From assembly GCA_020429395.1 (NCBI GenBank), contig JAGQLL010000006.1:30549-75288 (forward strand): DNA of 44,740 nt, read 5' to 3'. The number at the start of each line of letters is the position of its first letter. Within the stretch, counting starts at the first letter, position 1. The translations under genes and the position numbers were made by a program. A model generated the notes under the pieces. The model searched no databases, was not told the DNA's origin, and saw nothing but the letters and a program-made list of their open reading frames with translations. Source of the DNA: Candidatus Dojkabacteria bacterium. Lineage in GTDB: Bacteria; Patescibacteriota; Dojkabacteria; B142; OLB20. Below are positions 1 to 25,261 of the stretch, one piece after another.

Positions 1-1
1 A

Positions 2-1435: not shown

Positions 1436-1940
1436 TTATGTATACGTAAATTTTGTTTTCAGAAGTAGAAACGGGTTTTTTATCGTGGAACATAAAGGTG
1501 TTTGATATGAAAACGGCATTTTTAGGCATTTCTTGAGTTAATTTTTTTGCAAGTTTGTCCATCACTTTTGGGTAGAGATAAATGAATGCTGCATCGTATT
1601 TTTCATAGTTCAATTTTAAGAAGTCTTCTCTGATTATGTGAACTTTTTTGTAATTTCCAATTAGCTTCCTGAATTTCATGATTAAAACTAATATAGGATT
1701 GAATTCTATTGCGCTCACCTCATAACCTTCTCTTGCAAGAGCAAAAGCTACTCGACCATCGCCCGCCCCAAGTTCTGCTATATGCTTAACTTTATGATTT
1801 TTCAATTCTTTAATTGCTGTTTTTATAGTCTTTTTTGATGTAGGGAAATATGGAGCACTAATACGGAACGCCTTAATCCAATAATAGAAATAAACTATAT
1901 ATATTACTGAAAGTACAAGAAGGGCAATTAATTCGATCAT
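1425..1940 (-). CDS. class I SAM-dependent methyltransferase with N-terminal membrane helix
   Basis: IAELGAGDGRVAFALAREGYEVSAIEFNP matches motif I (GxGxG) plus the acidic residue after beta-2. N-terminal hydrophobic helix MIELIALLVLSVIYIVYFYYWI. 4-nt ATGA overlap with the PLP-enzyme ORF. Confidence 0.65.
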   Translation of the reverse strand: MIELIALLVLSVIYIVYFYYWIKAFRISAPYFPTSKKTIKTAIKELKNHKVKHIAELGAGDGRVAFALAREGYEVSAIEFNPILVLIMKFRKLIGNYKKVHIIREDFLKLNYEKYDAAFIYLYPKVMDKLAKKLTQEMPKNAVFISNTFMFHDKKPVSTSENKIYVYINEK

Positions 1941-2893
1941 AATCCGCTAAAGAGTAAAACTGGATATTTATAATTATAACCCTTTTTTACGGCTTTTCTC
2001 CAACCAGAAAAAGCCAAAAGAGAATTAAAACTATAATCCTTATGAAGTAAATTATTAACTATTTCTTTATCTTCCATGAGTTGTGTATCAGAAATTACCC
2101 ATCCAAAGCCATTTGATTTTTTTATTATTTCAACCACACTATTTTTCCTATGAGCAACTCTATCTGTAATTGCATCCGCAAGACTAGTGTCTTTTCGCTC
2201 AAAATCCACATCAAAATATTTTGATATTGAGTTAATCTTCTCAGTTTGGCATATGTGGATCGGTACATGAATATTTAACTCTTGAAACCCCTGGTTAATC
2301 CCAATACTACTTGTACCGCTACTGCATGGTATAAAAATTGCATCAATTTCCGGAACCTGTTCAAATAGTTCGTACGAAATAGTTTTAAAGCCTACGGGAG
2401 CATAAACATCAGTGGACCCACGTAAATTAATAAAATCAGGATTATTATTCAGAAATTTAATTAATTCGGATCGAGGTTTATTTGATAAGTTAATGTTGAT
2501 TTTTGAATTTGAAAGTTCTTTTATATTATTTAACTTCGAACTGTTAATTTGTTCACTTAAAAATAATTGCAATTCAACATTATATTGTCTAGAAATATAA
2601 CAAGCGCTGACCGCAGAATTTCCAGATGAAGATAATGCGAATCTTGTTTCTCCTTGTTGTATATGTCGAGCCATTTGATAGCCGATACTACGATCTTTGA
2701 ATGATCCGTTTAAATTATCGTTCTCATCTTTAATTATTAGATTTTCATCTTCGTATTTCAGCTCGATAATAGGTGTATTCACCTTTAAATCGAGTATTTT
2801 AAACTTGATTTCAATATCATCAAAATAATCCCAATAGCTTCTCATAGTAATTTTGTTATAGAATACTTGTAATAACGTTATAATCCATATCAT
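1937..2893 (-). CDS. fold-type II PLP-dependent enzyme (threonine synthase / cysteine synthase-like)
   Basis: NLNGSFKDRS (PLP-lysine motif), SSSGNSAVSA and IPCSSGTSS (phosphate-binding loop). The start is uncertain: ATG at 2893 or Met17 at 2845. Confidence 0.65.
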   Translation of the reverse strand: MIWIITLLQVFYNKITMRSYWDYFDDIEIKFKILDLKVNTPIIELKYEDENLIIKDENDNLNGSFKDRSIGYQMARHIQQGETRFALSSSGNSAVSACYISRQYNVELQLFLSEQINSSKLNNIKELSNSKININLSNKPRSELIKFLNNNPDFINLRGSTDVYAPVGFKTISYELFEQVPEIDAIFIPCSSGTSSIGINQGFQELNIHVPIHICQTEKINSISKYFDVDFERKDTSLADAITDRVAHRKNSVVEIIKKSNGFGWVISDTQLMEDKEIVNNLLHKDYSFNSLLAFSGWRKAVKKGYNYKYPVLLFSGL

Positions 2894-2930
2894 AATACAC
2901 TAGACTAATTTTAGTTTTTAGACAACCACT

Positions 2931-3119
2931 ATGGATATTAAAATCACATCACAAGGTAAAGAATATACCTGTGCAGAATGTAAAAATGAAGCATCTGTCG
3001 AGCAAGGTAATGGTGTTGGAGATGTTGTAGAGTGCCCTTTTTGCGGAATTGAGTATGAAATCCTTTCCAAAGATGATGAAGGAAACTATGAATTATGCAT
3101 CATAGAAGAAGAAAAATAA
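2931..3119 (+). CDS. LysW-like zinc-ribbon miniprotein (candidate amino-group carrier protein), 62 aa
   Basis: CAEC-x17-CPFCG. GDVVECPFCGIEYEIL resembles the LysW core GELVVCEDCGAELEVV as I recall it, followed by an acidic tail (DDEGNYELCIIEEEK). It lies divergent to, and less than 90 bp from, the ATP-grasp operon. Confidence 0.5.
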   Translation: MDIKITSQGKEYTCAECKNEASVEQGNGVGDVVECPFCGIEYEILSKDDEGNYELCIIEEEK

Positions 3120-3219
3120 TTGCAATACCTCATTCAATTTATGTATCATATTTGTATCACCATTATACTTAAATGATGTTATTTCATTTTTAGAAATAAT
3201 TTTGTTGATGTATTGGTCT

Positions 3220-3292
3220 GCTGGAGTAGCTCAGGTGGTAGAGCAACTGTTTCGTAAATAGTAGGTCGAGAGTTCGAATCTCTCCTCCAGCT
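3220..3292 (+). tRNA. tRNA-Thr (anticodon CGT)
   Basis: Cloverleaf folded by hand: acceptor GCTGGAG/CTCCAGC, D arm GCTC..GAGC, anticodon stem ACTGT/ATAGT with loop TTCGTAA, T arm GAGAG-TTCGAAT-CTCTC. No encoded CCA. Confidence 0.9.
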
Positions 3293-3316
3293 TATTATTA
3301 GTTTTAAAAAACAAAT

Positions 3317-4363
3317 ATGTTTAACCCCGAATTATTAATAACAAATAAAATCCTTACTAATATAGTAAATATTGAAAAAGAGGTATTACTTTTAAATGCT
3401 TCCGACATTACAACTCAGCAAAAAATCAAATTGAAAGCCACTTCGAAAGCACTATACCTCTTTCACGCTTCGCATATGATCGGCTATAACATCGGTTTGA
3501 AGGATGCTGAAAAGATCAGTGAAGGTAGGGTTTTTGATCAAGAAAATCAGAATATAGTTGTATTAAACAATATAAGAAATCTTCACGAATTTATTCGCTC
3601 AAGCCTTCAAGATGAATACATAGACATTGATTCGAGTATTCTCTTGCATATGAATAAAATCTTGCTTTCGAATTGGAAAGAAGTTTGGGAGGTAAAATTC
3701 AGAAACCCACAATTAATTGAAGATACAGATTGGAACGATTGGTTGCACCTTACTGATAAAACTATTGAGCCATTAACTCTTCAAGATGAACTTAGGTCAG
3801 CTTTTGACTGGTATAAAATTACTACACAAAAGCTTTATCCACTTATCAGAATTTCAATTTTAATATATCGACTTATTCAAATTGCACCATTTTCTCATCT
3901 AAATAAATTTACGATAATTGGTGCTTCAGATTTCTTATTAAGAAAGAATGGATATATAAGTGACGATTATTTGTCTACTTTTCGACTTTTTGATTCAAAT
4001 AATTCTCTATTTAAAGACGTCATTGCTAAAACCAATGTTGAAAATCCAAATGATCTCACTCTTTGGGTTGAACATTTTACAGACTCTCTAGCCCGAGAAC
4101 TAAAATCAGTTTCGATGGATATTCAAGAATTCGCTAAAGCAAATCCTAAGCAGAAGAAAACATTTCTTGATCTAAATAAAAGACAGTTAAAAATCCTAAA
4201 ATATCTACAAACTATTCCAACTATCAAACGTGAAGATTATGTACAAATTATGGAGGTCTCAACTATGACAGCATTTAGAGATTTAAATGATTTAGTCACA
4301 AAAAAATTGCTTAAAGTAGATGGACGTGGTCGAGCTACTAGGTATCATTTGGCTAATCGTTAA
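3317..4363 (+). CDS. Fic-family-like protein with degenerate active-site motif and C-terminal winged-helix domain
   Basis: IAPFSHLNKFTIIGASDFLL sits where the Fic motif HPFxDGNGRxxR is expected, but His, Asp, Gly and Arg are all replaced. The C-terminus LNKRQLKILKYLQ...YVQIMEVSTMTAFRDLNDLVTKKLLKVDGRGRATRYHL looks like a wHTH. Confidence 0.45.
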   Translation: MFNPELLITNKILTNIVNIEKEVLLLNASDITTQQKIKLKATSKALYLFHASHMIGYNIGLKDAEKISEGRVFDQENQNIVVLNNIRNLHEFIRSSLQDEYIDIDSSILLHMNKILLSNWKEVWEVKFRNPQLIEDTDWNDWLHLTDKTIEPLTLQDELRSAFDWYKITTQKLYPLIRISILIYRLIQIAPFSHLNKFTIIGASDFLLRKNGYISDDYLSTFRLFDSNNSLFKDVIAKTNVENPNDLTLWVEHFTDSLARELKSVSMDIQEFAKANPKQKKTFLDLNKRQLKILKYLQTIPTIKREDYVQIMEVSTMTAFRDLNDLVTKKLLKVDGRGRATRYHLANR

Positions 4364-5903
4364 TCTGTAGAACTTTTCGAATATTTTCTATTGTATTTTT
4401 GTTTTTAATAATAGTCTGTAGGTCGGTATCTTTTGCCTTTTTTATGCCCTCTACCGATCCAAATGCCCTCAAGAGTTTCTTCTTAGTTATATTACCTATA
4501 CCAGGAATATCGTCTAAAACAGATGCGGTCTGGCCTAGCGAGCGAAGTTTTCTATGGTAATTAATTGCAAATCTGTGTGACTCGTCTCTGATTCGTTGTA
4601 GTAGAAAATATCCGTCAGAATTAAAATTAAGTCTTCTTTGAACAAATTCGAGTTCCCCTTCTTTGTCTTTTATATAGAAGATATCTTCATTTTGTTTAGC
4701 TAGACCAACAATAGGAATATCCACATTTAGACTAGATAGCACCTTGTAAACTGAACTTAGTTGTCCTTTTCCGCCATCAATTATTATAAGATTCGGATTA
4801 ATTGAAAAACTGGCATCAGGTTTATTGGATTTATGCTTAAAACGTCTAGATAACATTTCAGACATCATCGCAAAGTCGTCGGGAGTAGTTTTTGTTTTTA
4901 TTTTGAATTTTCTATATAAATTTTTGGCAGGATTTCCATCTACAAATACAATCATAGAACCTACTGCATTTTTTCCTTGGATATTTGAAATATCATAACA
5001 TTCGATTTTGAAGTTTTCTTGTACTTTTAAATCAAAATGATCTAGTTTGTTCACCAATTCATTTAATGCTTTCAATTTATGTTTCTTTTTTTCTTCATGA
5101 AATGCTGTCTCATCAGTGAATGTGTCTTCTATAGTAACTCTTTGTTTGATATATTCAAGATCTTGTATTTTATTCCTTAGATCAGCAGATTTCTCAAATT
5201 CATATCTTTTAGAAAACTTCTCTAGATCAGTTTTAAGTGCTTTTACAAGTTCATTATGACCCTTAGTAAAGAAAGTGTTTATACCTTTGAGATTTTGATT
5301 ATATTTTTTCTTAGAGACATATCCAGCACATGGTGCTTGGCAAAGACCCAAGTGAAAATATAGACAAGGTATTGGGTCTGAAGATTTTATAATTTTTTTA
5401 TTTGTATTAGGATCAACAATTTCATTTATAACTCTGTTACAGGTTCTGTAGGGATAGATTTTCCTCAAACGTGACAATATACGTCTAACAGGCATTGTAT
5501 AGTGGTAAGGTCCTAAATATACAGCATTCTTTCTTGTTTTTGAACGAACAATTTGTAATCTAGGGAAATCCTCGTTTTTATCAATCATTATCCAGATGTA
5601 GTTCTTGTCATCTTTCAGGTCTCGATTATAATATGGCTTATACTTTTTAATAAGATTGGTCTCAAGTATAAATGCCTCTAACTCAGAATCTGTTGAGATG
5701 TGTTCAATACTAACAATATTAGCAACAAGATTGTTAATATGAGGATCGGAGTGGATTTTTGAAAAATAACTAGATACCCTTTTTTTGATATTTTTAGCCT
5801 TACCTACATATATAACAGATTGGTTTATATCCCTATAAATATAACATCCCGGTGTATCCGGCAAATCTGGTAACTGGAGTTTTATGATTTCTTCGCTAGA
5901 CAC
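4353..5903 (-). CDS. uvrC: excinuclease ABC subunit C
   Basis: GIY-YIG N-terminus (GCYIYRD..VIYVGKAKNIKKRVSSYF), a UVR-like helix (ADLRNKIQDLEYIKQ), and a C-terminal endonuclease plus HhH region (IPGIGNITKKKLLRAFGSVEGI). GTG start. At 516 aa it is short for UvrC. Confidence 0.9.
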   Translation of the reverse strand: MSSEEIIKLQLPDLPDTPGCYIYRDINQSVIYVGKAKNIKKRVSSYFSKIHSDPHINNLVANIVSIEHISTDSELEAFILETNLIKKYKPYYNRDLKDDKNYIWIMIDKNEDFPRLQIVRSKTRKNAVYLGPYHYTMPVRRILSRLRKIYPYRTCNRVINEIVDPNTNKKIIKSSDPIPCLYFHLGLCQAPCAGYVSKKKYNQNLKGINTFFTKGHNELVKALKTDLEKFSKRYEFEKSADLRNKIQDLEYIKQRVTIEDTFTDETAFHEEKKKHKLKALNELVNKLDHFDLKVQENFKIECYDISNIQGKNAVGSMIVFVDGNPAKNLYRKFKIKTKTTPDDFAMMSEMLSRRFKHKSNKPDASFSINPNLIIIDGGKGQLSSVYKVLSSLNVDIPIVGLAKQNEDIFYIKDKEGELEFVQRRLNFNSDGYFLLQRIRDESHRFAINYHRKLRSLGQTASVLDDIPGIGNITKKKLLRAFGSVEGIKKAKDTDLQTIIKNKNTIENIRKVLQIND

Positions 5904-5905
5904 GG

Positions 5906-6109
5906 TTATAGTTCTTCGTTTAATGCCCTTCTGTAGGTATCAAGTTTCCTGTCATGAACAAAAACCCTTGAGCATTGACATTCAAGGATTTCGGTACCAT
6001 CTGCTTTTTTATCAATAACTTTTGCTTTTTTTAAACCTTGGGTACAGCCTGGACACATTTTCTTTTGTAATAGAATGCCCTGTAAAGGCGTTATTAGTTT
6101 TTTTAACAT
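5906..6109 (-). CDS. small Cys-rich (zinc-ribbon-like) hypothetical protein
   Basis: 67-aa ORF with CPGC...CQC. Its stop lies 2 nt upstream of the uvrC start on the same strand. Confidence 0.4.
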   Translation of the reverse strand: MLKKLITPLQGILLQKKMCPGCTQGLKKAKVIDKKADGTEILECQCSRVFVHDRKLDTYRRALNEEL

Positions 6110-6165
6110 AGCTCTGAATATTTAAATCTGATAACATTATACTTATTAAACCATAAAAGACCAAA

Positions 6166-7266
6166 ATGAATTTGGAAATTGTAATCACATTAATTATCCT
6201 GGCTGTTTTGCTTTCGTTTATTCTCGCATTTCCGATTATTAGCTTTTTGTACAAATTTAAAATACAAAGAAATCTAGATGTTGATTTCTCTGTTTTAATT
6301 GAGTCTCGCAAACACAAGGTAGGGACACCTATTATGGGAGGTTTGATAATTATTCTAACAGTTGTGATTTTAAATTTAATTTTAAATTTTAACGAAACTA
6401 CAGCGGTTCCAATAATAATATTTATCAGTTTGGCACTAATAGGTGGTCTTGATGATGTTTTGAACTTATTTGGACAAAAACGAAAAGTCAGGACTTTAAA
6501 TAGAGTCATAACATTAATAAAAGTACATCGTAATAATCTTTATAGACTAAAATTGTTTCTAGGTCTCCCATGGATAACCTTCCACAGAGTTATGAGAATT
6601 TTCGAGTCTAACCCAGGGAAAGGTTTATTTGCTCACGAAAGATTACTATTACAACTTGCTAATGCTCTGGCTTTCTGTGTCTGGTTTATGACCTCCCAAG
6701 AAAGCCCAGAACAAATTGTACTGCCTTTTATTGGAATGGTCTCAATAGGTATTTTAATAATCCCTTTAATTATCGGAATAATTCTGGGAATGATAAATGC
6801 TGTAAATTTCTCTGATGGACTTGATGGATTGTCAGCCGGAATGTTGGTGAATGCATTTGTCGGATTTCTTATAATTGCTTTCTTTGATAATAACGTTCCA
6901 CTTGCATTGTTGACTTCCACAATTATTGGAGGTTTGGTGACATATTTGTACTTTAATATTCCTCCTGCTAGAGTTCAAATGGGTGATGTGGGTACTTATT
7001 CCTTAGGCGGACTATTAGCTATCATCGGCATAATGTTACAAAACCCGGTGGTACTTTTTATTATTTGTTTTCCATTCGTAGTCGAAGTTTCAAGTACTGT
7101 TATTCAAAGTGCTGTGAGAAAGCTTTTTGGAAGAAGATTGTTTAAGATGGCTCCCTTACATCATCATTTTGAAATGATGGGTTGGAGTGAAGAAAAAGTA
7201 GTTATGAGATTTTGGCTCTTCTCTAGTCTATTTACACTATTGGGGATTTGGGTGTATTTTTGGTAA
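6166..7266 (+). CDS. mraY: phospho-N-acetylmuramoyl-pentapeptide transferase
   Basis: GTPIMGGL, NAVNFSDGLDGLSAG, MGDVGTYSLGG and APLHHHFE. Polytopic membrane protein. Confidence 0.9.
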   Translation: MNLEIVITLIILAVLLSFILAFPIISFLYKFKIQRNLDVDFSVLIESRKHKVGTPIMGGLIIILTVVILNLILNFNETTAVPIIIFISLALIGGLDDVLNLFGQKRKVRTLNRVITLIKVHRNNLYRLKLFLGLPWITFHRVMRIFESNPGKGLFAHERLLLQLANALAFCVWFMTSQESPEQIVLPFIGMVSIGILIIPLIIGIILGMINAVNFSDGLDGLSAGMLVNAFVGFLIIAFFDNNVPLALLTSTIIGGLVTYLYFNIPPARVQMGDVGTYSLGGLLAIIGIMLQNPVVLFIICFPFVVEVSSTVIQSAVRKLFGRRLFKMAPLHHHFEMMGWSEEKVVMRFWLFSSLFTLLGIWVYFW

Positions 7267-7271
7267 AGCTT

Positions 7272-7280
7272 TGCTATAAT
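7272..7280 (+). promoter_or_regulatory. extended -10 promoter element (TGcTATAAT) for the leader and tRNA-Phe transcript
   Basis: Exact TGnTATAAT 6 nt after the mraY stop, about 35 nt upstream of the conserved leader. Confidence 0.45.
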
Positions 7281-7313
7281 TACACTTCGTTCTTTGATGT
7301 TACTCTTTCTAGT

Positions 7314-7419
7314 AAGTTTCAATGACCAAAGGGAATTGAAACTTAAGAGGAGGAACAAGCGGAAGCAGGAACTAAGTCGCGTTGCGATCTTAGTGGATGC
7401 TGAAGCTTTGTTTCGACGA
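7314..7419 (+). ncRNA. conserved structured 5' leader, copy A, directly abutting tRNA-Phe
   Basis: About 105 nt that align without large gaps to 29702-29806. 9-bp hairpin AGTTTCAAT/ATTGAAACT (7315-7323/7335-7343) with loop ..AAAGGGA; second hairpin at 7371-7394. Non-coding: the same frame in copy B hits a stop. Confidence 0.5.
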
Positions 7420-7492
7420 GCCGAGGTAGCTCAGCTGGTAGAGCACCCGCCTGAAGAGCGGGGTGTCGTCAGTTCAAGTCTGACCCTCGGCA
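7420..7492 (+). tRNA. tRNA-Phe (anticodon GAA)
   Basis: Acceptor GCCGAGG/CCTCGGC, anticodon stem CCCGC/GCGGG with loop CTGAAGA, T arm GTCAG-TTCAAGT-CTGAC. No encoded CCA. Confidence 0.92.
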
Positions 7493-7565
7493 TATATAAA
7501 GTTAATAATATGGGCACTTATCCTCTGATCAAGTTAGAGGAGTTCGGTCATTTAAAATAGACTTA

Positions 7566-7650
7566 GGGCGCTTAGCTCAGCTTCCGCCAGAGGCGGATCA
7601 GCCTTTGGCTGAGGTTAGAGTCCCGCTAAGCGGGATTTACACCGAGTAAG
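7566..7650 (+). other. tRNA-Val-derived 5' fragment carrying hairpin insertions (no T arm or 3' acceptor strand)
   Basis: 7566-7581 is identical to the first 16 nt of the intact tRNA-Val. 7582-7635 contains three 6-bp/3-nt-loop hairpins. TTTACACCGAGTA (anticodon loop plus 3' strand) then resumes, after which the homology ends. Confidence 0.6.
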
Positions 7651-7681
7651 TTATAGTTCATTAAAAATATATGATTTAGCT

Positions 7682-7755
7682 GGGCGCTTAGCTCAGCTGG
7701 TTAGAGCGACTCGTTTACACCGAGTAGGTCGGGGGTTCGACTCCCTCAGCGCCCA
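7682..7755 (+). tRNA. tRNA-Val (anticodon TAC)
   Basis: Acceptor GGGCGCT/AGCGCCC, D arm GCTC..GAGC, anticodon stem ACTCG/CGAGT with loop TTTACAC, T arm GGGGG-TTCGACT-CCCTC. No encoded CCA. Confidence 0.92.
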
Positions 7756-7824
7756 GCTAGGTCATAATATTCATGAATAAATCCCCATTAAAATACTTCG
7801 TTTACATTCTTTTATAATGAATCC

Positions 7825-7996
7825 GGGTGCTTAAATCAGCTTCCGCCAGAGGCGGATCAGCCTTTGGCTGAGGTTAGAGTCCCGCGAAGCGGGATTTACA
7901 CCAAGTAGGTCGGATTTATTGATGTAATAAATTGGAAGGGAGATTTCTCTCAAAGAGAGATATCTGTCTTGGAGACGACTTCCTCAGCGCCCACCA
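7825..7996 (+). other. ornate tRNA-Val-like element: acceptor-type closing stem, five inserted hairpins, genomically encoded CCA
   Basis: 5' GGGTGCT can pair with 3' AGCGCCC, followed by A-CCA. It carries the same 54-nt hairpin block as 7582-7635 (at 7841-7894, with 1 loop difference) plus a second ~60-nt hairpin-rich insertion (7914-~7973) in the T-arm region. TATAAT at 7813-7818 lies 6 nt upstream of the 5' end. Confidence 0.6.
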
Positions 7997-8358
7997 ATAA
8001 AATTGATATCATTAATAATCTGTATCCTCAATTCTTCCATAGAGTTAAATTTTATGGTTTCGCGAATAAATTCACCCAAAATCACCTTTACTGTTCGTTC
8101 GTATATGTCCCTGCTAAAGTCCAGTATGTGCACTTCAAATTGAGGTTTAGTTTCGCCGAACACAGCCCTTGGCCCATAATGAGCAACACCTTTATAAGGT
8201 TTCTTTTCAATGTAAATATCACAGGCATAAACGCCATACTTTAAACCTGAAATATCAATATTGGGTAAAATATTTGCAGTTGGAAAACCGATTTTTGTTC
8301 CATCCCCGGAACCTCTAGTCACTTTCCCTGAGAAGTTGGTTATCTGTTTCTTTCGCAT
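7984..8358 (-). CDS. riboflavin kinase (stand-alone RibF C-terminal-type domain)
   Basis: GTKIGFPTANI, GVYACDI, HYGPRAVFGE, FEVHILDFSRDIYERTVKV and FIRETIKFNSMEELRIQI match the bacterial riboflavin kinase domain. No FAD synthetase domain is attached. Confidence 0.8.
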   Translation of the reverse strand: MRKKQITNFSGKVTRGSGDGTKIGFPTANILPNIDISGLKYGVYACDIYIEKKPYKGVAHYGPRAVFGETKPQFEVHILDFSRDIYERTVKVILGEFIRETIKFNSMEELRIQIINDINFIGGR

Positions 8359-9286
8359 TATTTTCTAAACTAATTGCAATTATACTTAGTAATAATATCG
8401 CAATTCCAAATGCTTTTGCCATGGATAACTTATCTGGTTCTCCATAAGGATTAAGTGCTGTTATTGCTATAAGTACACTAACAATAGGGAATGTTAATTC
8501 TGCAAAGGTTGCAACCTTAGCCTCTGTACGTTTCAGTCCGTGATAATAAATCAAAATCGCACCTGCTCCTGTAGTTAAACCAATAACAATAAATCTCCAC
8601 ATCTCATCAATAGTTACATTCCAAGGATAATACTCTTGATTAATAGCAATCATAACAATAAGACTAATTGGGATTGCTAAGAAAAATCTGAGACTAGTTG
8701 CTTCAGAGAAAGAAAGCTTTCTAAGTAGGTACTTAGATAATATGGTTCCAAATCCCCAACAAAATGCTGCACCAACTGACAAAATGTAGATTAATTCTTT
8801 TCCTTTTAGTTGTAACTCTACCCCATCTGTACCAAAACTAATCATATAACTCCCAATTAATGCTAAAGGAACTAATGAAAGCAATTTCAAGCCAATTTTT
8901 TCTTTAAGAATAAGACGTGAAAAGACTATTACAAATAATGGTTGTAGTTTTTGAAGTAGCACAGGTGTCGAAAAATCATAAATTGCAAAACTATTTTGAA
9001 GTGCTTGCGTAAACATCAAAGTGGCACCTACGCTACTAACTAGTGTTAGTAAAATTGCAATGAACCATTCTTTGTTATTCAGCGTTCTAATCTTTTTAAT
9101 AGAACGGAAAAATAATGGGCTTATTATTACAAATCCAACTAGGTGTTCAATGAAAACTATGCCCGCTGGGGTAATAGTGTTTGAAAGTTCTGATCTTAAT
9201 ACTGCGTCTAAAGCCCAAAGTCCTCCAGCCAACATTATGAATAATGGAGCTATTTTTATTGAATTTAATTTTGCAAAAATTTTCAT
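8315..9286 (-). CDS. EamA/DMT-family transporter
   Basis: About 10 predicted TM helices in two similar halves, the typical drug/metabolite transporter layout. Confidence 0.65.
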   Translation of the reverse strand: MKIFAKLNSIKIAPLFIMLAGGLWALDAVLRSELSNTITPAGIVFIEHLVGFVIISPLFFRSIKKIRTLNNKEWFIAILLTLVSSVGATLMFTQALQNSFAIYDFSTPVLLQKLQPLFVIVFSRLILKEKIGLKLLSLVPLALIGSYMISFGTDGVELQLKGKELIYILSVGAAFCWGFGTILSKYLLRKLSFSEATSLRFFLAIPISLIVMIAINQEYYPWNVTIDEMWRFIVIGLTTGAGAILIYYHGLKRTEAKVATFAELTFPIVSVLIAITALNPYGEPDKLSMAKAFGIAILLLSIIAISLENNAKETDNQLLRESD

Positions 9287-9401
9287 CTTATATATTAATA
9301 ATATTTATGACAATTTCGAAGTAGGTTGATTGTATTAGTTTTCGCTTTTATAAACAAGTTTTCAGTACTCTATTTCATGTAGCTTATTATTTTTAAACAA
9401 A

Positions 9402-16713: not shown

Positions 16714-17183
16714 AGTCCTAATTTTTGAATAATACCACTTGAAGAAAAATCATCAGTTTTTTTCACGATAATCAACTTCCCTCCAATACTTTCAATTACT
16801 TCTTTTTTATTAACAATGCCTGGATCTCCTTCTACTACTGCTAAATATTCTGGTTGCATCTCCACTACGAACTTTCTTAGGTCTTCCCAAGATGATTGCC
16901 ATTTATGAATATAGTCAATTGTTTCTAAATGTGAGAGTGCTTCTGCTCTCTCATCTTGGTTAAAAATCGGTCTATTTGTGCCTTTCCTACGTTGAATTTC
17001 ATTATCACTAAGTATCACTAGTAGTACTTTTACATCATTAGAAATTTGGGTTTTAACTGAAGAAAAAAATCGAAGATGTCCCAGATGGAGAACATCGAAG
17101 CTGCCCGTGATTAGGACAACTTCGTGTTCTTTAAATATCTTAATAACATCTTTGTCGTTAATAATTTTTGACATTAGCCACAT
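16710..17183 (-). CDS. cytidylyltransferase-family nucleotidyltransferase (RfaE domain II / RibL-like)
   Basis: VLITGSFDVLHLGHLRFF (HxGH motif), RKGTNRPIFNQDERAEALSHLETIDYI, and C-terminal FSSSGIIQKL. Confidence 0.6.
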   Translation of the reverse strand: MWLMSKIINDKDVIKIFKEHEVVLITGSFDVLHLGHLRFFSSVKTQISNDVKVLLVILSDNEIQRRKGTNRPIFNQDERAEALSHLETIDYIHKWQSSWEDLRKFVVEMQPEYLAVVEGDPGIVNKKEVIESIGGKLIIVKKTDDFSSSGIIQKLGL

Positions 17184-20100
17184 TTTGAATATCCGCAGGA
17201 TCTACATAGTATACATCCTTCTGCATATTCTAAATCAGATCCACATTCGGGGCAATCTAACATGTCACCAAAATTATTATCTTTCGAATAGCCAGATTTT
17301 GTATCTTCTTGAATAACAACCGTTTGAGTGGTGACTGTAGTTTCTGCAACATATTCAATGTCAGCAGGATTTTGCTCTTCAGAACTTAAAGTAGGCTCAA
17401 TTGGAGTATTTGACATCCCATCATCAATTAGTTCTTCCTCCACTTCAGGGACTTCTTGCTCAGAAAACATTTTTATTTGCTCTCGTTGTTCTTCAATGTG
17501 CTTTTTCAAGATTTTCGCAACTGCATCAGGCACTGAGTAGATAAACATTCCTCGATTCAATGTAGGTGTGGATGTACGAATTCCTTGAAGTTGTTTCACT
17601 ATCGACTCAGGCTTGATTCCCGAGCGAAGTGCCATAGAGATCATCCTACCCAGTGCCTCAGTGTAACCTTGTGTGAAACTCCCACTTTTACCAATATTTA
17701 GGAATACTTCGACTATTCCTTGGTCGTCTTCATTTATTGTAATATACAGATCTCCTTGCTCGGTTTTCACTTCATAAGTTTTTCCTCTGGTTACTAGATC
17801 TCTTTTTCTAGGTTCTAAAACATTACGAGGCATTTGTATAGAAACAATTTCTTCTTTAGTTGAAGTGTTTGTGTCCTTTTTGGAGGTTCCTACTTGAAGC
17901 GCAGGGTCTTTGCTTCCATCTCTAAAAATAGTGATACCTTTACATTCCAGATCAAATGCTAGCTCGTATACTTTAGCAACATCTTGCCAAGTAGCATGAT
18001 TTGGTAAATTGATAGTTTTCGAAACTGCACTATCTACATATTTTTGGAAAACTGCTTGAATTTGAACGTGAGATTCTGGTGTAATTTCATGAGTTGTTAC
18101 AAAAACATCTACAATATTTGCGGGAATATTGTATTTTTCTGCAATATCCTTTAGATGCACTCCATTGGCAATTTCCGCCATTAATTCAGAAGAGTAAAAT
18201 CCACTCTTTTTGGCAAATGAGAGAAATTGTTTATCTATAACCTCTTGATCTACTCCTCCCATTGAATTCTTCCTTCTATAACCAAGAGAGAATATTGGTT
18301 CAATTCCTGGATTACAATCAGCGATAATTGAAATTGTTCCTGTAGGAGCAATAGTTGTGGTGCGAACGTTACGCATATATTTCTTTTCTGATTTCCAATT
18401 TGAATCATTAAATGCAGGGAAATTACCTTTTTCCTTCCCTAATTCTTCAGACGCAATGTGAGATTTGTCTTGTATAAATTTCATAATCTCACCAGCTAAC
18501 TTGATTGACTCCTCACTTCCATATGTAATGCCTAATTCTATTAATATATCCGCGAATCCCATAATCCCAACTCCAATATTTCGTGTTTTTCGAGTCATCT
18601 CCTCGATTTCTTTGATTGGATAGTTATTAACGTCAATTATGTTATCTAGAAACCTAACTGCAGTTGAAGTAACTTTTTCCAGATGAGTCCAGTTCACCAT
18701 CTTTAATTTTTCTTTAAGATCAAGTTTTACAAGATCAACGTAAGAGATGTTCTGTGGTACAGTTATGAACTTTGCTAAATTAATATGTCCCATATTACAA
18801 GTCTCGAATGGAATTAGTGGTTGTTCGCCACACGGATTTGTAGCATCCATAGTTCCGAGTTTTGGGGTGTTGTTCTTGGCCTCAGCACGATCTAGGAAAT
18901 ACATTCCCGGATCACCACTTTGCCATGCATGTTTTGCAATTCTTTCAAACATCTCACGAGCCTTGATTACTTTGTAGACTTTTTTATCACTTGGATCGAT
19001 TAATTCCCAGTCAAGATCTTCTTTAACAGCTTTCATAAAATCATTACTCGCTCCAACTGAAATATTGTAGTGAGTGATTGAGGTTAAATCGTCTTTACAA
19101 GATATAAAATCCTCTATGTCTGGATGACTTGCATTCAGAATAGCCATAGAACCTAATCCACGACCACCTCTACCTCTGATGGTGTCCTGAGCTCGATTAA
19201 ACATACGAATATATTCAACTGGACCGGCTGCGTTCTCTCCAGTAGTTTTCACCTTTGCATATGATGAGCGTATTTTTGAAAAATTGAAACCAGTCCCCAC
19301 ACCTCTTCGCAGACATTGAATATTCATATTTAATGTTTGGAAAATCGAGTCGATGGAATCGTCAATAGGCAAAACAAGACATTTCGACATAATAGTTTCT
19401 TCCCCCATACCAGCCCATAATAATGTACCTCCACAGTAAAACTTCCCGTCGTTCATTACATCAAAAAATTCTTTTGCAATCTTTTTCTTCTTTGATGATG
19501 CTTCCTTGCTTGCTACAAAGTCAGCAATTCTTTGCCAAAGTTGTTCGGGTGATTCATTTATTTCATCGTTGTCATTCTTTTTCAATGCTCTTTTTTCAAG
19601 AACTTGAAGTGCATTTTCAGTCAATGAATGTAAAATTTTGCTATCACTCTTTGGATTCTCTTCTTGTTTACTGCTCGATAAAACTTGGAAATTCTTAGAA
19701 CCATCTCTATAAATTGTTATTCCCTTACAACCCGATTCCCATGCAAGTATGTACGCTTTTCTGACTTCATCAATTGAAGCGTCATTTGCAAGATTTATGG
19801 TTTTTGATACAGCAGCATCTACAGAATTTTGAGCAGCAGCTTGCATCTTCACATGCCACACAGGTTCAATATCATGTGTAGTGACAAATATCTTTTTCGC
19901 TTCTGCTGGAACTTCAGGAAAACTATCCAAATGACCACCATTATCGGCGATTTTTTTCATTAATTTTTCGGAATAGAAATCATGTTCTCTGGCATAGGCT
20001 TCGAATTCTTCATTTACATAGAATAGTGATTTTCTATCTTCTTGACCTTCGTCTTGATAGAAACTTTTCCTTTCATAAACCAATGAAAAGATTGGTTCGA

Positions 20101-21478
20101 TTCCGCTTGATGTATTTGAGACTAAACTCAATGTTCCTGTTGGAGCAATCGAGGTCATGGTAGCGTTTCTGACCTTTCTACCCATCTCATCCCATTTACT
20201 ACCTTCAAAACCAGGGAATACTCCTCTTTCTGTAGCCAATCTTTCTGATTCTTTTGTAGAAGCTTCTTGAATAAAGGCAATAATCTTCTTAGCGAGATTT
20301 ACTGCTTTGTCACTGTTATAAGCGATACCCATTTTATAGAACATGCTTCCCAACCCAACAACACCCAAACCTAGTTTTCTTGTTTTCTCAACCTCATCGG
20401 CGATTTTCTTAAGTGGGAAATCACTCAAATCGATCATATTATCTAAAAAGTGTGTTGCAGAATATGCCGACTTTTCTAGTAAGTCCCAATCAATATCCAT
20501 ACCTTCTTTTGTTTCTACAAGATGTGTTGGAAGAACTATTGAGCCAAGATTACATGATTCGTAGGATCGCAGTGGTTCTTCTCCACATGGGTTTGTGGCT
20601 TCGATAACTCCCAAAGGTTTAGTGGGGTTTGCATTTTGTGTTGTGTCTAGAAAGAATAAACCGGGATCAGCGCATTCCCATGCTTTTTCACATATCAATT
20701 CGAAAACTTCTCTCGCTTTTAGTGACTTTACTTTTTTTTCGTTTCTGGGATTAATTAAATCATATTCCTTATCTTCACGAACGGCGTTCATAAATTCATC
20801 TGTAACTCCAACAGAAATATTAAAATTTCGGATTGTATCATCTTGACCTTTAAGATTAATAAAATCAATAATATCTGGATGATTGATGTTTAGGATAGCC
20901 ATGTTTCCACCTCCTCTTTTCTTCCCCTGTAGCACTTGATCAAAGGCTTGTGAAAAAGTTTTAATAAAGTGAATCGGTCCAGCAGCAACATTTGGTGTAC
21001 CCCCAACTTCATCTCCTTTGGGTCTTATGTGAGAAAAATTAAATCCAGTTCCTCCGTTATTCTTTTGAACCAAAGCAGCTTCTTTCATAGTATCGAAAAT
21101 CGATTCTAAATTGTCTTCAATGGGTAATACAAAGCAAGATGAAAGCTGTCCTGTTCCATCAATCTTATTTCCTGCTTCATATAGGACCCTAGAACCTGGA
21201 AGAAATCGATTCTCGGCCATTATTTGATAGAATTCCTTTGAAGTTCTCTCAACAACTCTTTGCTTTCGCGCTTCAGAACCTTTGACATATTTTGAGTCTT
21301 CAGAAGCCATAGCTGTTGCTACTCTCCAAAACATTTGTCGAGGGGTTTCTATCGCTTCACCTTTTGAATCTTTAAGCAAATGGCGTTTTTTCATCACTTC
21401 AAGTGAGTTAGGAGCGATATTTGGTTCGGAAAGACCTTTTGGTGGATCCACGAGACGTTGCTTATTGTTACTAGACAT
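17174..21478 (-). CDS. nrdJ: class II (adenosylcobalamin-type) ribonucleotide reductase, two complete catalytic cores fused in tandem plus C-terminal domain and zinc ribbon (1434 aa)
   Basis: Every core motif occurs twice: [16 protein letters not shown] / [37 protein letters not shown] / [39 protein letters not shown] / [35 protein letters not shown] / [17 protein letters not shown]. These are followed by [30 protein letters not shown] and [26 protein letters not shown]. Confidence 0.9.
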   Translation of the reverse strand: [1434 protein letters not shown]

Positions 21479-21515: not shown

Positions 21516-22382
21516 TTATTTAGATTCTTTTGTTAACTCACGAATGAAAAAGGCAGATTTTTCAAATATTTTGTAAATTGAAGGAAGTACTTCTTCCTGT
21601 TTAATTTCTTGAAAGTTTTTCCAAACAACATCGGGATTTTCCATATTCGACTTCTCGCTATCAACTCTTGCGATAAAGAATTCTACAAGTCCAGCGAAAT
21701 CATCCCTCCCATGAAAAGATTGGTCTGTAAATGGTATTGCGCCATCTAATATTTCAATATCATAATCTCTTTTTAGATTTTGTGATAAATTCTCACTCAG
21801 CATCTCCCATGTATTTCCAGGAATGTTGACTACATCTCCGATAGGTATTGTCCATAAGTTATTATCTTTAGTAGAAGTCATGTCTTTCACAAGCATAAAT
21901 TCGTTTTTGTCATTAAGCACTATTCCAGCTACCGATATGAAATGTAACTTATTTTTAGTTTGGAGAGCGTTATAAGCTGATTCGTAAATTTCATGTACAA
22001 CTGGAAGTGTTTTAAGATCTCGTATTTCTGAGATGGTTTTCCATTCCACCTTTTCAACTTCATTAGTGGAAGCCTTTATGTCACCAGCCTCATATTTTGA
22101 TAAAAATGCTATAGCAACAACTTTGTGACCTTCATCGTCAACAAATTGATGCGAACTTAAATATTCTGGATATTTAATCTTTGCACCAGATTCCTCTTCA
22201 ACTTCAATATGGAGACTCTTCTCAAGAGCCTCATACTTTTCGTTTTCATTAAAATGCATTTCTCCTACGTGATAAGAATAAACTCCAGGCATCAACTTTT
22301 CAGATTTGCTTCTAGAAGCAATTAAAAATTTCTGTTCCTCGTTATAAACAACTCCTATGATTAAAATTTTGTACTTATCCAT
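21516..22382 (-). CDS. double NUDIX-fold-like protein (atypical Nudix box)
   Basis: The N-terminal half has GEMHFNE...IEVEEESGA, a Nudix-box-like sequence (G-x5-E ... EExG) with about 5 extra residues and no Arg. The C-terminal half (ISVAGIVLNDKNEFMLVKD...WTIPIGDV) repeats the fold pattern without a box. Confidence 0.5.
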   Translation of the reverse strand: MDKYKILIIGVVYNEEQKFLIASRSKSEKLMPGVYSYHVGEMHFNENEKYEALEKSLHIEVEEESGAKIKYPEYLSSHQFVDDEGHKVVAIAFLSKYEAGDIKASTNEVEKVEWKTISEIRDLKTLPVVHEIYESAYNALQTKNKLHFISVAGIVLNDKNEFMLVKDMTSTKDNNLWTIPIGDVVNIPGNTWEMLSENLSQNLKRDYDIEILDGAIPFTDQSFHGRDDFAGLVEFFIARVDSEKSNMENPDVVWKNFQEIKQEEVLPSIYKIFEKSAFFIRELTKESK

Positions 22383-22389
22383 AAAATTT

Positions 22390-22842
22390 CTAATAGCTTA
22401 ACCAATTAAAATAATTTTTATCATGAGCCAGTTCATCAAAAAGTTCTGCTGTAAGTGTCCTATTAAAAGATGAAACTAAAAATGCTTCGATAAATTGTTG
22501 TGCATCCGAATGTGAGATTTCTTCAATTTGTGCGAATTTTAATGCCAATTTTTGAAAAGATATTTTTGGTGTATCATCATCAATTTGAATTTTCATTCTA
22601 AGAAATAGCTTACTCTGTCCTGTTGACTGGATTTCAACCGCTTTTAAAATACTTTCGGGTTTCAATGTTGATAGACCAATAATAACGAATTGCCAGTCCT
22701 GACTATCCGTCCACACTTTTGTAATTTCTGTATGATCAACATTTGAGGTATCAATAGCCACCCCTTGCTCTAAGTCCCTTTTTACTTTATCTAGTAGCCT
22801 ATCAGGACTTATTTTTAATGAATCGAATGTTATTTTTTCCAT
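22390..22842 (-). CDS. hypothetical protein (150 aa) embedded in the RNR operon
   Basis: ORF with a 1-nt start/stop overlap with the upstream nrdJ (22842) and 7 nt from the NUDIX-like gene. I recognise no motif. Confidence 0.5.
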   Translation of the reverse strand: MEKITFDSLKISPDRLLDKVKRDLEQGVAIDTSNVDHTEITKVWTDSQDWQFVIIGLSTLKPESILKAVEIQSTGQSKLFLRMKIQIDDDTPKISFQKLALKFAQIEEISHSDAQQFIEAFLVSSFNRTLTAELFDELAHDKNYFNWLSY

Positions 22843-24620
22843 TATTTTAAATTTAAAACTTGTTTATCTCGACTTTTGTCTCGATAAATAGTAAAACCTT
22901 TTAAATTAAGACTAGAGGCAAGTTTAAATGCCTTGATGACATCTTCAACTTTGGCACTTTCAGGCATATTTATTGTTTTGGTAACTGCATTATCTGTGTA
23001 TTTTTGGAATGCAGCTTGAGTTCTTATATGCCATTCCGGAGTAATATCTCCTGCTGAAACAAATATCTTCCTCAACTTTTCAGGAACTTCCTTAATATCT
23101 TTTACACTCCCTTTTTGTGCCACTTCATGCATTATCTCATCTGAGTAAATCCATTCCTTTTTTAATGCTTTTTCAAGATATTTGTTCATGTATATTAGTT
23201 CTGAATCCCCTACTGTTTCCATATTCTTTCTGACATAAGCCATAGCAAAGAATGGTTCTATACCACCATTGCAATCCGCCACAAGACTTGTTGTTCCTGT
23301 TGGAGCAATAGTAGTAACTGTAGAGTTTCGCATATTTTTATAGCCTTTCTTATGCCATCTTGATCCTTTGAAATTTCCAAAATCACCTCTTATTTCACCT
23401 AGTTTCTTGGAAGCATCATGTCCTGTATCTTTTATGAATTTCATTACATTTTCTGCCAAATCAAGTGCTTCTTCGCTATCGTATTTAATCCCAAGTTCTA
23501 CTAGCATATCAGCCCATCCCATCACTCCGAGCCCAATCTTCCTGTTGCCATATTTCACTATTTTTTCTATTTGTGGAAGGAGATGGTTTGATACTGTGAT
23601 CGTATTATCGAGAAATCTTATTGCCGTGTTAATTACAAATTCCATTCTTTTCCAATCAATCTTTTCGTGAGTTGGAATTGAAAGATTCTTTTTTGAGTCA
23701 ATAATAAATTTATTCAAAACAATTGAGCCAAGATTACATGCTTCATATGGTAATAATGGTTGCTCACCACACTGGTTGGTTGCTGTCATCTTCCCTACGT
23801 TCGGCGTTGGATTGTACCTGTCAATCTCATCGATGAAAATAAATCCAGGCTCTCCACTTCTGTATATACTTTCTGCTATTTTTGTAAGTAATGCATGTGG
23901 GTCTAGGGTTTTGTATACTTGTTTCTTGAATTTTAGATCAAAAGTTTTGTTTTCATTCAATGCTTTTACAAATTCATCTGTAATTGAAATTGAAATATTG
24001 AAATTTGTAAGTTGTGAATAATCCTCCTTCGCAGAAATAAACTTCTCAATCTCCGGATGGTCGATTCGTAATATCCCCATATGTCCCGCATGTCTCACTG
24101 CGCCACGGTTTAAAATTACTTCTGATGAAAAATCATATAATCTCATAAAAGAAATTGGTCCACTTGCTTCACGTCCTGTTGAAGTTACTAGTTCGTGCTC
24201 AGGCCTTATGGTTGAAAAGTCATAACCAATTCCTGCGCCCCTACGATGAAGTACTACTGTATTAGCTAAAGTTGTGTAGATAGATTCAAGACTGTCTTCT
24301 ATAGGCATCACATAACATGCCGCTACTAGATCTTCCTTTCCTCGATCAAGTAATGACATACCTGATAGAAATTCTAAATTGGATTGGATTTCATAAAAAT
24401 CAGCAATTAGTTGATCAAGTTGTTTTTTTGATGGCTTTTTGTAACCTTCTTTTTTATCGGAATTATCAGTTTCAGCCCTTGAAATAAATTTTGAAACTCT
24501 TTCAAACATCTGAGATGGTGTTTCTAGTGGTTTTCCATTTTTATCGATTTTTAAATATCTTTTCTCTACGATAAACTTTGCGTTATCAGTTAATTTAGGG
24601 GTTTTATTTTTCACAGTCAT
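22842..24620 (-). CDS. nrdJ: class II ribonucleotide reductase, catalytic core only (592 aa, no C-terminal domain or zinc ribbon)
   Basis: [59 protein letters not shown] and [19 protein letters not shown]. The protein ends 10 residues after the YRD block. Confidence 0.85.
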
Positions 24621-24637
24621 AATAATTTTTATGAAAT

Positions 24638-25090
24638 TTATTTAGATTTTAATTCTTTAATTGCTTGCTCGAAATCTTCGATGGTATTAAAATCCCGATA
24701 AACTGACGCAAATAACAGATATGCTATTGTGTCGAGCTTTTTTAATCTTGTGAGTACCATCTGACCAATTTCAGTACTTTTTACAACTGTTGTTTTGCGA
24801 TTTAGAAGCTTAAGCTCAATGTCATCTAGTAAATCATCAATTTGACTTTCAGTTAAATCACGTTTTTTAACAGCTTTCATTATTCCTTTTTTCAATTTTT
24901 CTCTGTCAAATTCTTCTACTTTTCCACTTCTTTTGTGAACATTTAAACTAATAGTCTCTACTCTTTCGTATGTGGTGAATCTCTTTTTACAGTTTAAGCA
25001 CTCACGTCTACGCCTGGTAACGCCTGACTCGTTATTGTCTCTTTTATCGACAACTTTAGTTTCTATACGATGACAATAAGGACAAATCAT
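24638..25090 (-). CDS. nrdR: transcriptional repressor NrdR
   Basis: MICPYCHRIETKVVDKRDNNESGVTRRRRECLNCKKRFTTYERVE (zinc ribbon) plus an ATP-cone. ATG at 25090; the 26 codons upstream in the ORF track look like a read-through extension. Confidence 0.9.
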   Translation of the reverse strand: MICPYCHRIETKVVDKRDNNESGVTRRRRECLNCKKRFTTYERVETISLNVHKRSGKVEEFDREKLKKGIMKAVKKRDLTESQIDDLLDDIELKLLNRKTTVVKSTEIGQMVLTRLKKLDTIAYLLFASVYRDFNTIEDFEQAIKELKSK

Positions 25091-25145
25091 GTTAAAAAAC
25101 AGTGTTACGTAAGGGAAATTAGAAAGCATGCCCCTTACTTTCAAA

Positions 25146-25192
25146 ACACAACAGCTTGTGTTGTTCAACTAGACTAACAACTAGAACTTGTG
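25146..25192 (-). promoter_or_regulatory. candidate tandem NrdR boxes
   Basis: ACACAAcagcTTGTGT (25146-25161) and ACAActagaacTTGT (25177-25191). Their centres are about 31 bp apart, upstream of nrdR. Confidence 0.5.
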
Positions 25193-25261
25193 CTTGTCAA
25201 GTTATTTTATTATATTAACGAGGAAGAATTTGGAATGTTCTTTAGGCAGATGAAGTAGTCC

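Follow-up and report, generated by a model that had tools for sequence, protein, structure and literature searches.

Ribonucleotide reductase (RNR) is the textbook enzyme in which a single active site is retuned for four substrates by effectors bound at a homodimer interface, and Patescibacteria have minimal genomes and rely on scavenged B12. A 44,740-nucleotide stretch of Candidatus Dojkabacteria DNA (GenBank assembly GCA_020429395.1, contig JAGQLL010000006.1, positions 30,549 to 75,288 of the forward strand; hereafter the window, with positions counted from its first letter) raises the question of what such an organism does with a gene that encodes two class II RNR (NrdJ) catalytic cores in one polypeptide, followed by a single C-terminal cysteine-rich domain (CRD). 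We found that this gene belongs to a double-core family that is real, lineage-restricted, and distinct from intein-bearing NrdJs, and that a third, tail-less core (core 3) is its obligate operon partner. Features of the sequences lead us to favour, with some reserve, a joint reading: that the double-core open reading frame (ORF) is a genuine, selectively maintained class II (adenosylcobalamin (AdoCbl)-dependent) RNR of Patescibacteria, predicted to bind AdoCbl, and that its product is the larger of the subunits of a three-core RNR, the specialised cores of which would act in a hetero-oligomer with one shared CRD.

Two diverged cores in one continuous gene

A sequence-only reading of the window had proposed that the frame is unbroken across the junction of the two halves, near 19,600-19,700. 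This held, as the gene is a single uninterrupted frame of 1434 amino acids (aa) from an ATG start. Its parts are as follows.

17174..21478, minus strand: double-core class II RNR, arranged as core A, linker, core B, and CRD (ORF, Pfam, NCBIfam, and homologues)
19679..21478, minus strand: core A, aa 1-600 (motifs, T. maritima alignment, family alignment)
19622..19678, minus strand: inter-core linker, that is, the junction, aa 601-619 (AlphaFold2 confidence and family alignment)
17891..19621, minus strand: core B, aa 620-1196 (motifs, T. maritima alignment, family alignment)
17177..17890, minus strand: CRD, aa 1197-1434 (Pfam, Cys spacing)
17498..17776, minus strand: TSCPD/IscU-like domain inside the CRD, aa 1235-1327 (Pfam)
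17177..17254, minus strand: six-Cys zinc-finger/redox array, C1409 to C1433 (Cys spacing in family tails)

Pfam matched Ribonuc_red_lgN (PF00317) and Ribonuc_red_lgC (PF02867) twice each (approximately aa 23-600 and 616-1196) and TSCPD at aa 1235-1327, C-terminal of both cores. The protein passed two NrdJ equivalogs of NCBIfam, with 1226.9 bits on TIGR02504 (cut-off 399.95; best stretch aa 26-600) and 1638.4 bits on NF006417 (cut-off 961; best stretch aa 616-1434), whole-protein scores that are sums over both cores. A three-way alignment with core 3 recovered in each half the full motif set that the sequence-only reading had named. Core A contains SSC115FVLP, N296-P-C298-G-E300, C309 exactly 11 residues after C298, and TSIAPTGT; core B contains SKC700LVLP, N881-P-C883-G-E885, C894 at the same distance from C883, and TTIAPTGT. 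C298 and C883 are the thiyl Cys of the finger loop; C115 and C309 in core A, and C700 and C894 in core B, make up the redox pairs. Cores A and B are 41% identical to each other, and 38% (A) and 42% (B) identical to core 3. Because the halves share only 41% identity, their duplication is neither recent nor made by assembly, as had been supposed from their divergence.

Both halves appear catalytically intact as well as non-identical, again in line with the earlier proposal. The five catalytic residues (C/N/C/E/C) are invariant in A and in B across all 115 complete family members. Also kept in both halves are an Asp at position +7 from the first redox Cys (D122 of core A, D707 of core B), the loop-1 Arg (R152 in core A, within R152-P-K-G, and R737 in core B), the distal phosphate loop TIAPTG, the SKTIN motif, and the betaJ motif. 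Judging from E. coli D232 and T. maritima D141, D122 and D707 would be the residues that bind the effector ribose. All three cores keep this effector Asp and the loop-1 Arg in the family alignments. The cores keep 120 (A), 119 (B), and 126 (core 3) of 214 canonical NrdJ columns, defined by a conservation of 90% or more across 78 canonical single-core NrdJs, and mean within-group identity is 0.62 for A, 0.63 for B, and 0.71 for core 3. By these measures, neither A, B, nor core 3 seems to resemble a decaying duplicate.

Several features place the cores in class II. The betaJ motif, read from the sequence, has the class II pattern [YF]-R-D in all three cores, with no Tyr-Tyr dyad; that dyad serves radical transfer on betaJ in class I and class O alpha subunits and separates them from class II. 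The RNR alpha fold (an N-terminal all-alpha domain and a ten-stranded alpha/beta barrel) is present for both halves by Pfam, AlphaFold2, and Foldseek, and AlphaFold2 predicts in both cores a beta-hairpin that we take to be the one after strand betaH. Each half aligns over the whole catalytic chain of T. maritima NrdJ (PDB 1XJE, 3O0O, and others; E-values of about 1e-92 to 1e-108) and shares its catalytic residues C134, N320, C322, E324, and C333; the native T. maritima enzyme also has a C-terminal CRD. Foldseek matched each half, per chain, to T. maritima NrdJ (1XJE/3O0Q) with a target-normalised template modelling (TM) score of 0.83-0.85 at about 34% identity.

Neither an NrdB-like gene nor an adenosyltransferase equivalent was seen among the scanned window ORFs (ORFs at 1..9300 lay outside the scan), and an Rfam search returned no cobalamin riboswitch or other Rfam element near the operon. 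In a distant Patescibacterium (locus L001), a CobA/CobO/BtuR-type cob(I)alamin adenosyltransferase gene lies directly downstream of the double-core gene (12408-12944), which fits a local AdoCbl supply.

A C-terminal CRD with six conserved Cys is found in about 70% of NrdJ proteins. That only core B is followed by such a domain with a terminal Cys-rich zinc ribbon, as the sequence-only reading had it, is borne out by an array of C1409, C1412, C1422, C1425, C1428, and C1433 (C1409-x2-C-x9-C-x2-C-x2-C-x4-C1433), the spacing of which recurs unchanged in 118 of 119 family tails. The two fused cores have one CRD between them, and core 3 has none. According to a study of S. nassauensis NrdJd (Loderer et al. 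2017, PMC5704485), the CRD of that enzyme is of the same kind (150-220 aa, six Cys at C920, 923, 933, 936, 939, and 945, with near-identical spacing); four of its Cys bind zinc and two form a redox shuttle. The same paper reports that this CRD makes the enzyme assemble into tetramers and hexamers and carries electrons from one subunit to another, and that an NrdJd paralogue without a CRD is found only where the genome has another with one (PMC5704485). This work is a direct precedent for one CRD serving several cores. The two systems differ in that S. nassauensis has one CRD per core and scattered paralogues, compared with one CRD for three cores here, two of them covalently linked and the paralogues predicted to be co-transcribed.

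The double-core architecture recurs outside the window. In a search of 5.8 billion proteins, more than 120 clusters (90% identity) had the same 1400-1500-aa architecture, down to 45% identity. Cluster members came from NCBI, JGI, ENA, and Logan assemblies; named ones belong to Candidatus Dojkabacteria/WS6, Kerfeldbacteria, Parcubacteria, or Patescibacteria, and the closest named relatives are Candidatus Dojkabacteria/WS6. All 120 listed proteins passed a single-core profile twice in full, as did the window protein (core hidden Markov model (HMM), aa 1-602 and 612-1200). Scanning metagenomes with a core-A-specific loop probe, from which we also took synteny, found the same fused gene on about 25 contigs that had been assembled independently. 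A reference-genome scan with the full two-core alignment, which holds generic RNR motifs, returned almost only canonical single-core NrdJs, and these were reused as an outgroup.

These data bear on whether the gene could be an artefact, that is, a chimeric assembly, a frameshift that merged two adjacent nrdJ genes, or a single NrdJ lengthened by inteins. Unfused tandem nrdJ genes do occur in related metagenome loci, and many long NrdJ proteins carry inteins, but we regard any such origin as barely credible. A stop or frameshift at the junction was looked for and none was found, and a chimeric join or frameshift is excluded by the recurrence of the continuous double-core ORF, which different projects and assemblers yielded in over 120 clusters and some 25 contigs. 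The low identity of the halves also stands against an artefact, as does the profile being passed twice in full rather than once with inserts. We rejected an intein-bearing NrdJ on this last ground, since intein types pass the profile once, with inserts at HMM positions ~131, 175, and 288. The other long proteins (1300-1650 aa) among the best 150 hits of the search described next were of this kind, with one pass and one to three intein-sized inserts at recurrent sites (P0283, P0291, P0310, P0314, P0322, P0327, P0330, P0338, P0350, and others); the site at ~288 falls inside the N-P-C-G-E finger loop.

The sequence-only reading had called the architecture unusual, and we agree. About 15 billion proteins, clustered at 50% identity, are covered by 1.84 billion representatives; among the best 150 hits in these, the only double-core entries were two full-length proteins (P0076 and P0241) and three junction-spanning fragments. 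Foldseek found no PDB chain that covers more than one half (query-normalised TM score at most 0.44). In T. maritima NrdJ each chain holds a single core with a P-N-S-P apical loop, and the two specificity sites of the homodimer are identical, compared with two different cores per chain here, a third encoded apart, and loops 1 and 2 and an apical loop that are non-canonical and paralogue-specific. In the monomeric NrdJm (RTPR) of Lactobacillus leichmannii, the problem of a dimer-interface specificity site is solved within a single polypeptide. NrdJm does so with an insertion of about 130 aa that mimics the partner helices, and has one active site and never a CRD, whereas here there is a second complete core instead. 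The NrdJm insertion domain PF21995 scored below threshold in the double-core protein (20.4 vs 27 bits), which, with the presence of the CRD, rules out an NrdJm identity.

Split NrdJa and NrdJb of Pseudomonas aeruginosa are described as a core and a CRD on separate, cooperating polypeptides (PMC5704485). That is a core/CRD fission, the opposite rearrangement to the two-core fusion here. In the multi-nrdJ genomes of Schell et al. (PMC8365446), co-existing paralogues also differ at the apical phosphate loop, but they are treated as independent enzymes, and that paper mentions neither fused cores nor Patescibacteria. Here, by contrast, the paralogues share a polypeptide or an operon, and two of their three motifs belong to neither class described there. 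We found no description of fused NrdJ cores or a three-core operon in full-text searches or in targeted reading of RNR-wide insertion and extension surveys, PMC5704485, and PMC8365446. Two terms were considered and set aside: 'NrdJf' is an RNRdb subclass name and does not mean 'fused', and 'tandem' in Burnim et al. refers to ATP-cones, not tandem cores. Fused-core sequences are already public under generic annotations, and it is the arrangement itself that we did not find described.

Core 3 and the nrdR operon

The sequence-only reading had described the architecture at 17174-21478 and mentioned a third core in the locus. That extent stands for the two-core gene. The functional unit is larger: the third core is a separate gene and a constant operon partner. 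The genes and sites upstream of the double-core gene are as follows.

22842..24620, minus strand: core 3, a stand-alone, tail-less NrdJ paralogue of 592 aa (Pfam, NCBIfam, family alignment, synteny)
21516..22382, minus strand: Nudix hydrolase of 288 aa, with a weak second Nudix-like match in its C-terminal half (Pfam/NCBIfam)
22390..22842, minus strand: ORF of 150 aa with no family match and no Cys (Pfam/NCBIfam)
24638..25168, minus strand: nrdR repressor gene (Zn ribbon and ATP-cone), directly upstream of core 3 (ORF scan)
25146..25193, minus strand: candidate tandem NrdR boxes, namely the palindrome ACACAAGCTGTTGTGT at 25146-25161 and a weaker palindrome centred ~32 bp upstream (position only)

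Core 3 scored 584 bits on TIGR02504 and belongs to a family with 115 or more full-length members, the most distant at 51% identity. Its catalytic residues C102, N282, C284, E286, and C295 are invariant in the family alignment. The finger loop is N-x-C-G-E, with Q or L at x and never P (N-Q-C-G-E in the window). The C-terminus always lies just past the barrel, with no tail anywhere in the family. Wherever a locus extended far enough to tell, core 3 lay upstream of the double-core gene and on its strand. This held in 26 of 26 such loci, made up of 23 from metagenomes, the window, and L001 and L002 (a Patescibacterium with a fused protein only 47% identical). The two ORFs abut or lie 25-40 nucleotides apart in some loci, with no gap in L086 and L088. 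Between them, the Nudix gene is kept in about 10 related loci and the 150-aa ORF, which overlaps the last base of the core-3 stop codon, in five close loci only.

The nrdR gene immediately precedes core 3, both in the window and in 10 or more further fused loci, and its translation probably begins at the in-frame ATG at 25129 or at a start further downstream. Both palindromes lie upstream of this probable start, and the weaker one overlaps a TTGACA hexamer. We tentatively note that the pair resembles tandem NrdR boxes; matches to the NrdR-box consensus across the whole window were not above chance. Downstream of the double-core gene are a cytidylyltransferase-like gene and then recO. The operon appears to run nrdR - core 3 - (150-aa ORF - Nudix) - coreA-coreB-CRD, followed by the cytidylyltransferase-like gene and recO. 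The Nudix neighbour, or a Ham1 domain embedded in the protein in other lineages (see below), suggests a module for deoxynucleoside triphosphate (dNTP) production and sanitation.

Some 15 kb away from the RNR operon, the window also encodes a flavodoxin and, after it, a two-subunit 2-oxoacid:ferredoxin/flavodoxin oxidoreductase (36279-39382, plus strand), a conceivable source of low-potential electrons. Two other ORFs, of 1993 aa (30277-36258, plus strand) and 489 aa (27972-29441, minus strand), had zero Pfam matches.

Divergence at recognition elements

Cores A, B, and core 3 were each monophyletic in a neighbour-joining analysis (bootstrap 92, 89, and 100). Identity between cores is 40-42%, compared with 44-48% between the cores and canonical NrdJs. 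The cores are as distant from one another as from canonical NrdJs, which marks them as old paralogues. They differ mainly at three sites, namely loop 1, loop 2, and the apical phosphate loop, and each difference is conserved within its paralogue. Loop 1 reads R-S-[ST]-Y-[SA]-K-V-x-T-T-G-E-x-A-A-G-P-V-E in core B (R-S-S-Y-A-K-V in the window) and R-P-E-G-x-x-V-x-S-T-G-[RK]-E-A-S-G-P-I-S in core 3. Loop 2 of the canonical single-core set is K-Q-G-G-T-R-R-G-A-N-M. Core A, with L-Q184-G-K-K-R188-G-G-G-N-M, keeps the canonical Gln and Arg; the Gln is replaced in core B (R-G-R-G-G-R773-G-L-G-S-M) and also lost in core 3. We take this Gln and Arg to be substrate-reading residues, presumably equivalent to yeast Q288/R293 and T. 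maritima Q203/R207.

The apical phosphate loop is P-N-S-P in 77 of the 78 canonical NrdJs. In core A it is P-G-[SGA]-R in 95 of 115 members (P-G-S-R in the window, which is triphosphate-like) and P-N-S-P-like in about 18, including two variants with a Ham1 insert (P0068 and P0072). Core B has [CS]-G-G-[TA] or S-G-Q-A (C-G-G-T in the window), and core 3 has S-G-M-[SPV] (S-G-M-S in the window). When tested as dimeric NrdJs, none of the three cores fits the combination of canonical loop 2 (K-Q-G-G-x-R-R-G-A-N) and P-N-S-P apical loop. According to Schell et al. (2021, PMC8365446), the apical loop has been shown experimentally to set di- versus triphosphate specificity, with P-N-S-P in nucleoside diphosphate (NDP) reducers and P-[ASG]-G-R, P-S-M-R, or P-Q-G-S-P in nucleoside triphosphate (NTP) reducers. 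One of two main motifs was present in more than 97% of 1655 NrdJs, and a single G68S variant, analogous to the P-G-S-R of the window, stayed GTP-preferring (PMC8365446). The apical motifs of core B and core 3, as read from the alignments, are outside both validated phosphate-specificity classes. These divergent loops point to specialised cores or asymmetric hetero-oligomers, beyond a mere tethered dimer.

Related loci show that paralogous cores also occur unfused. The core-A-specific probe found tandem-core loci with two separate cores in L111, L112, and L113; in L111 and L112, a core-3-like gene is paired with an A-like gene, without B. Five loci (L115, L116, L120, L121, and L125) have a divergent core with a full CRD, followed by an A-like core with a zinc finger only. 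The divergent core of these arrays scored only 270-390 bits on the core profile and has M-R instead of Y-R at betaJ, and nrdR lies upstream in L115, L120, L121, and L125. Two loci (L123 7530-15748 and L126 7502-15695) contain four separate tandem NrdJ core genes, all catalytically intact, and a stand-alone ORF of 62-74 aa that matches only the zinc-finger end of the CRD (L123 9254-9475 and L126 9277-9462). In the Patescibacteria isolate JTS-AC14 (L010 7974-13174), two adjacent NrdJ genes have nrdR upstream; the first has fragmentary, weak core matches and a full CRD, and the second a complete core with a zinc-finger end.

Every core of the unfused arrays recovered with the core-A-specific probe has the catalytic residues, effector Asp, and loop-1 Arg. 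Loop 2 varies between paralogues and is conserved between orthologues; the four motifs in L123 and L126 are L-N-I-G-S-I-R-H-A-G-H-M, Q-G-[GA]-K-R-H-G-G-N-M, G-M-G-G-H-R-K-A-A-S-M, and R-Q-E-G-R-Y-E-S-G-N-M. From these comparisons, the A-B fusion is one outcome among broader multi-paralogue NrdJ arrays.

How the cores may work together

The linker between fixed anchors is 20-72 aa long across the family and never shorter than 20, hydrophilic, rich in K, E, S, T, A, and P, and unconserved. In about 20 clusters it holds a Ham1/ITPase domain above the Pfam threshold. In these variants of ~1600 aa (P0036, P0065, P0067, P0068, P0070, P0072, and others; loci L101, L102, L106, and L107), the domain, a non-canonical NTP pyrophosphatase of ~200 aa, is inserted between A and B; the core A apical loop is diphosphate-type P-N-S-P in P0068 and P0072, and P-G-A-R in P0036. 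AlphaFold2 modelling of aa 1-1200 (68-sequence alignment) gave a mean predicted local distance difference test (pLDDT) of 86.9, with each core confident, a disordered, flexible linker (pLDDT below 50 at aa 596-615), and a predicted TM score (pTM) of 0.56. By our own, uncalibrated expectation, this pTM is roughly that of two well-modelled, independently placed domains. The sequence-only reading had pictured a covalently linked pseudo-dimer. Its two intact, non-identical halves with one tail stand; T. maritima-like packing of the halves, through an alphaA/alphaB four-helix bundle with specificity sites at the interface, may hold but gains no support from this pTM.

For the three-core enzyme that we favour, we propose that all three cores would be active reductases, each with its own substrate and/or effector preference. 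They would assemble as a hetero-oligomer, most simply an intramolecular A:B dimer of the NrdJ type together with core 3, and such a dimer would hold two non-equivalent specificity sites. The single CRD would re-reduce all active sites in cis and in trans, as in the subunit cross-talk of S. nassauensis NrdJd. Fusion would fix the stoichiometry of A and B at 1:1 and keep both cores near the only tail, and the cores might divide the substrate spectrum by base and/or phosphorylation state. Our confidence is highest for the activity of all cores, lower for one hetero-oligomer with a CRD that works in cis and trans, lower again for an A:B dimer with fixed 1:1 stoichiometry, and lowest for the division of substrates. 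A fuller version of this last step, which we hold only as a tentative possibility, is an RNR in which each core is tuned, through its own apical phosphate loop, loop 1, and loop 2, to a nucleotide subset and/or to di- or triphosphates, within one hetero-oligomer with one CRD; it would also take in the arrays of up to four tandem cores in related organisms.

Several points weigh against parts of this proposal. The relative placement of A and B is not confident in the AlphaFold2 model (pTM 0.56). It is an assumption that core B and core 3, with apical loops outside both classes, bind substrate normally. A CRD expressed as a separate protein failed to rescue the CRD-deleted enzyme of S. nassauensis (PMC5704485), so trans-reduction of the tail-less core 3 would need a real complex. 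All cores keep the effector Asp and the loop-1 Arg, so allosteric regulation is likely to persist, which suggests that specificity is not fully hard-wired; we consider asymmetric regulation more likely from these sequences.

Other pairings are rather unlikely in our view, although some of the evidence leans their way: the fused cores could each pair with core 3 (A:3 and B:3), so that the polypeptide would tether two heterodimers, or two polypeptides could pair as A:A' and B:B'. The pTM lends no support to a defined A:B interface, the linker is long, variable, and able to accept a 200-aa domain insertion, core 3 is the most conserved core (0.71 vs 0.62 and 0.63), as expected of a multi-partner subunit, and the loci with core-3-like and A-like cores without B (L111 and L112) show that such two-core sets exist. 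Against A:3 and B:3 pairing, the abutting core-3 and A-B ORFs of L086 and L088 hint at coupled, roughly equimolar synthesis, not the 2:1 ratio it would need. Core 3 is also canonical at several positions of helices alphaA/alphaB where A and B have each diverged, which fits retention of an ancestral homodimer interface by core 3, though none of these points is decisive. We find it distinctly improbable that one fused core is a decayed duplicate, a pseudo-subunit without catalytic activity that has a regulatory or scaffolding role. Other enzyme families do include inactive paralogues that activate a working partner (the T. brucei AdoMetDC prozyme), and core B and core 3 have lost the loop-2 Gln and have apical loops outside both validated classes. 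However, over 115 sequences that reach down to ~45% identity, every core shows little or no variation in the catalytic residues, effector Asp, loop-1 Arg, TIAPTG, and betaJ, and the three cores keep similar counts of canonical positions and evolve at similar rates.

If division of labour among the cores is true, dedicated or asymmetric modules would partly replace the classical switching of specificity at one site by allostery. Three intact cores that have diverged at the elements reading base, phosphate, and effector would be a natural experiment in partitioning regulation among paralogues. Schell et al. describe it as a puzzle that some organisms maintain several oxygen-independent NrdJ enzymes (PMC8365446). 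Since the paralogues here are fused or in one operon, they are not condition-specific alternatives, and the three-core system makes that puzzle directly testable. It also offers a test of whether one CRD can serve several active sites, and it bears on how Patescibacteria supply their dNTPs.

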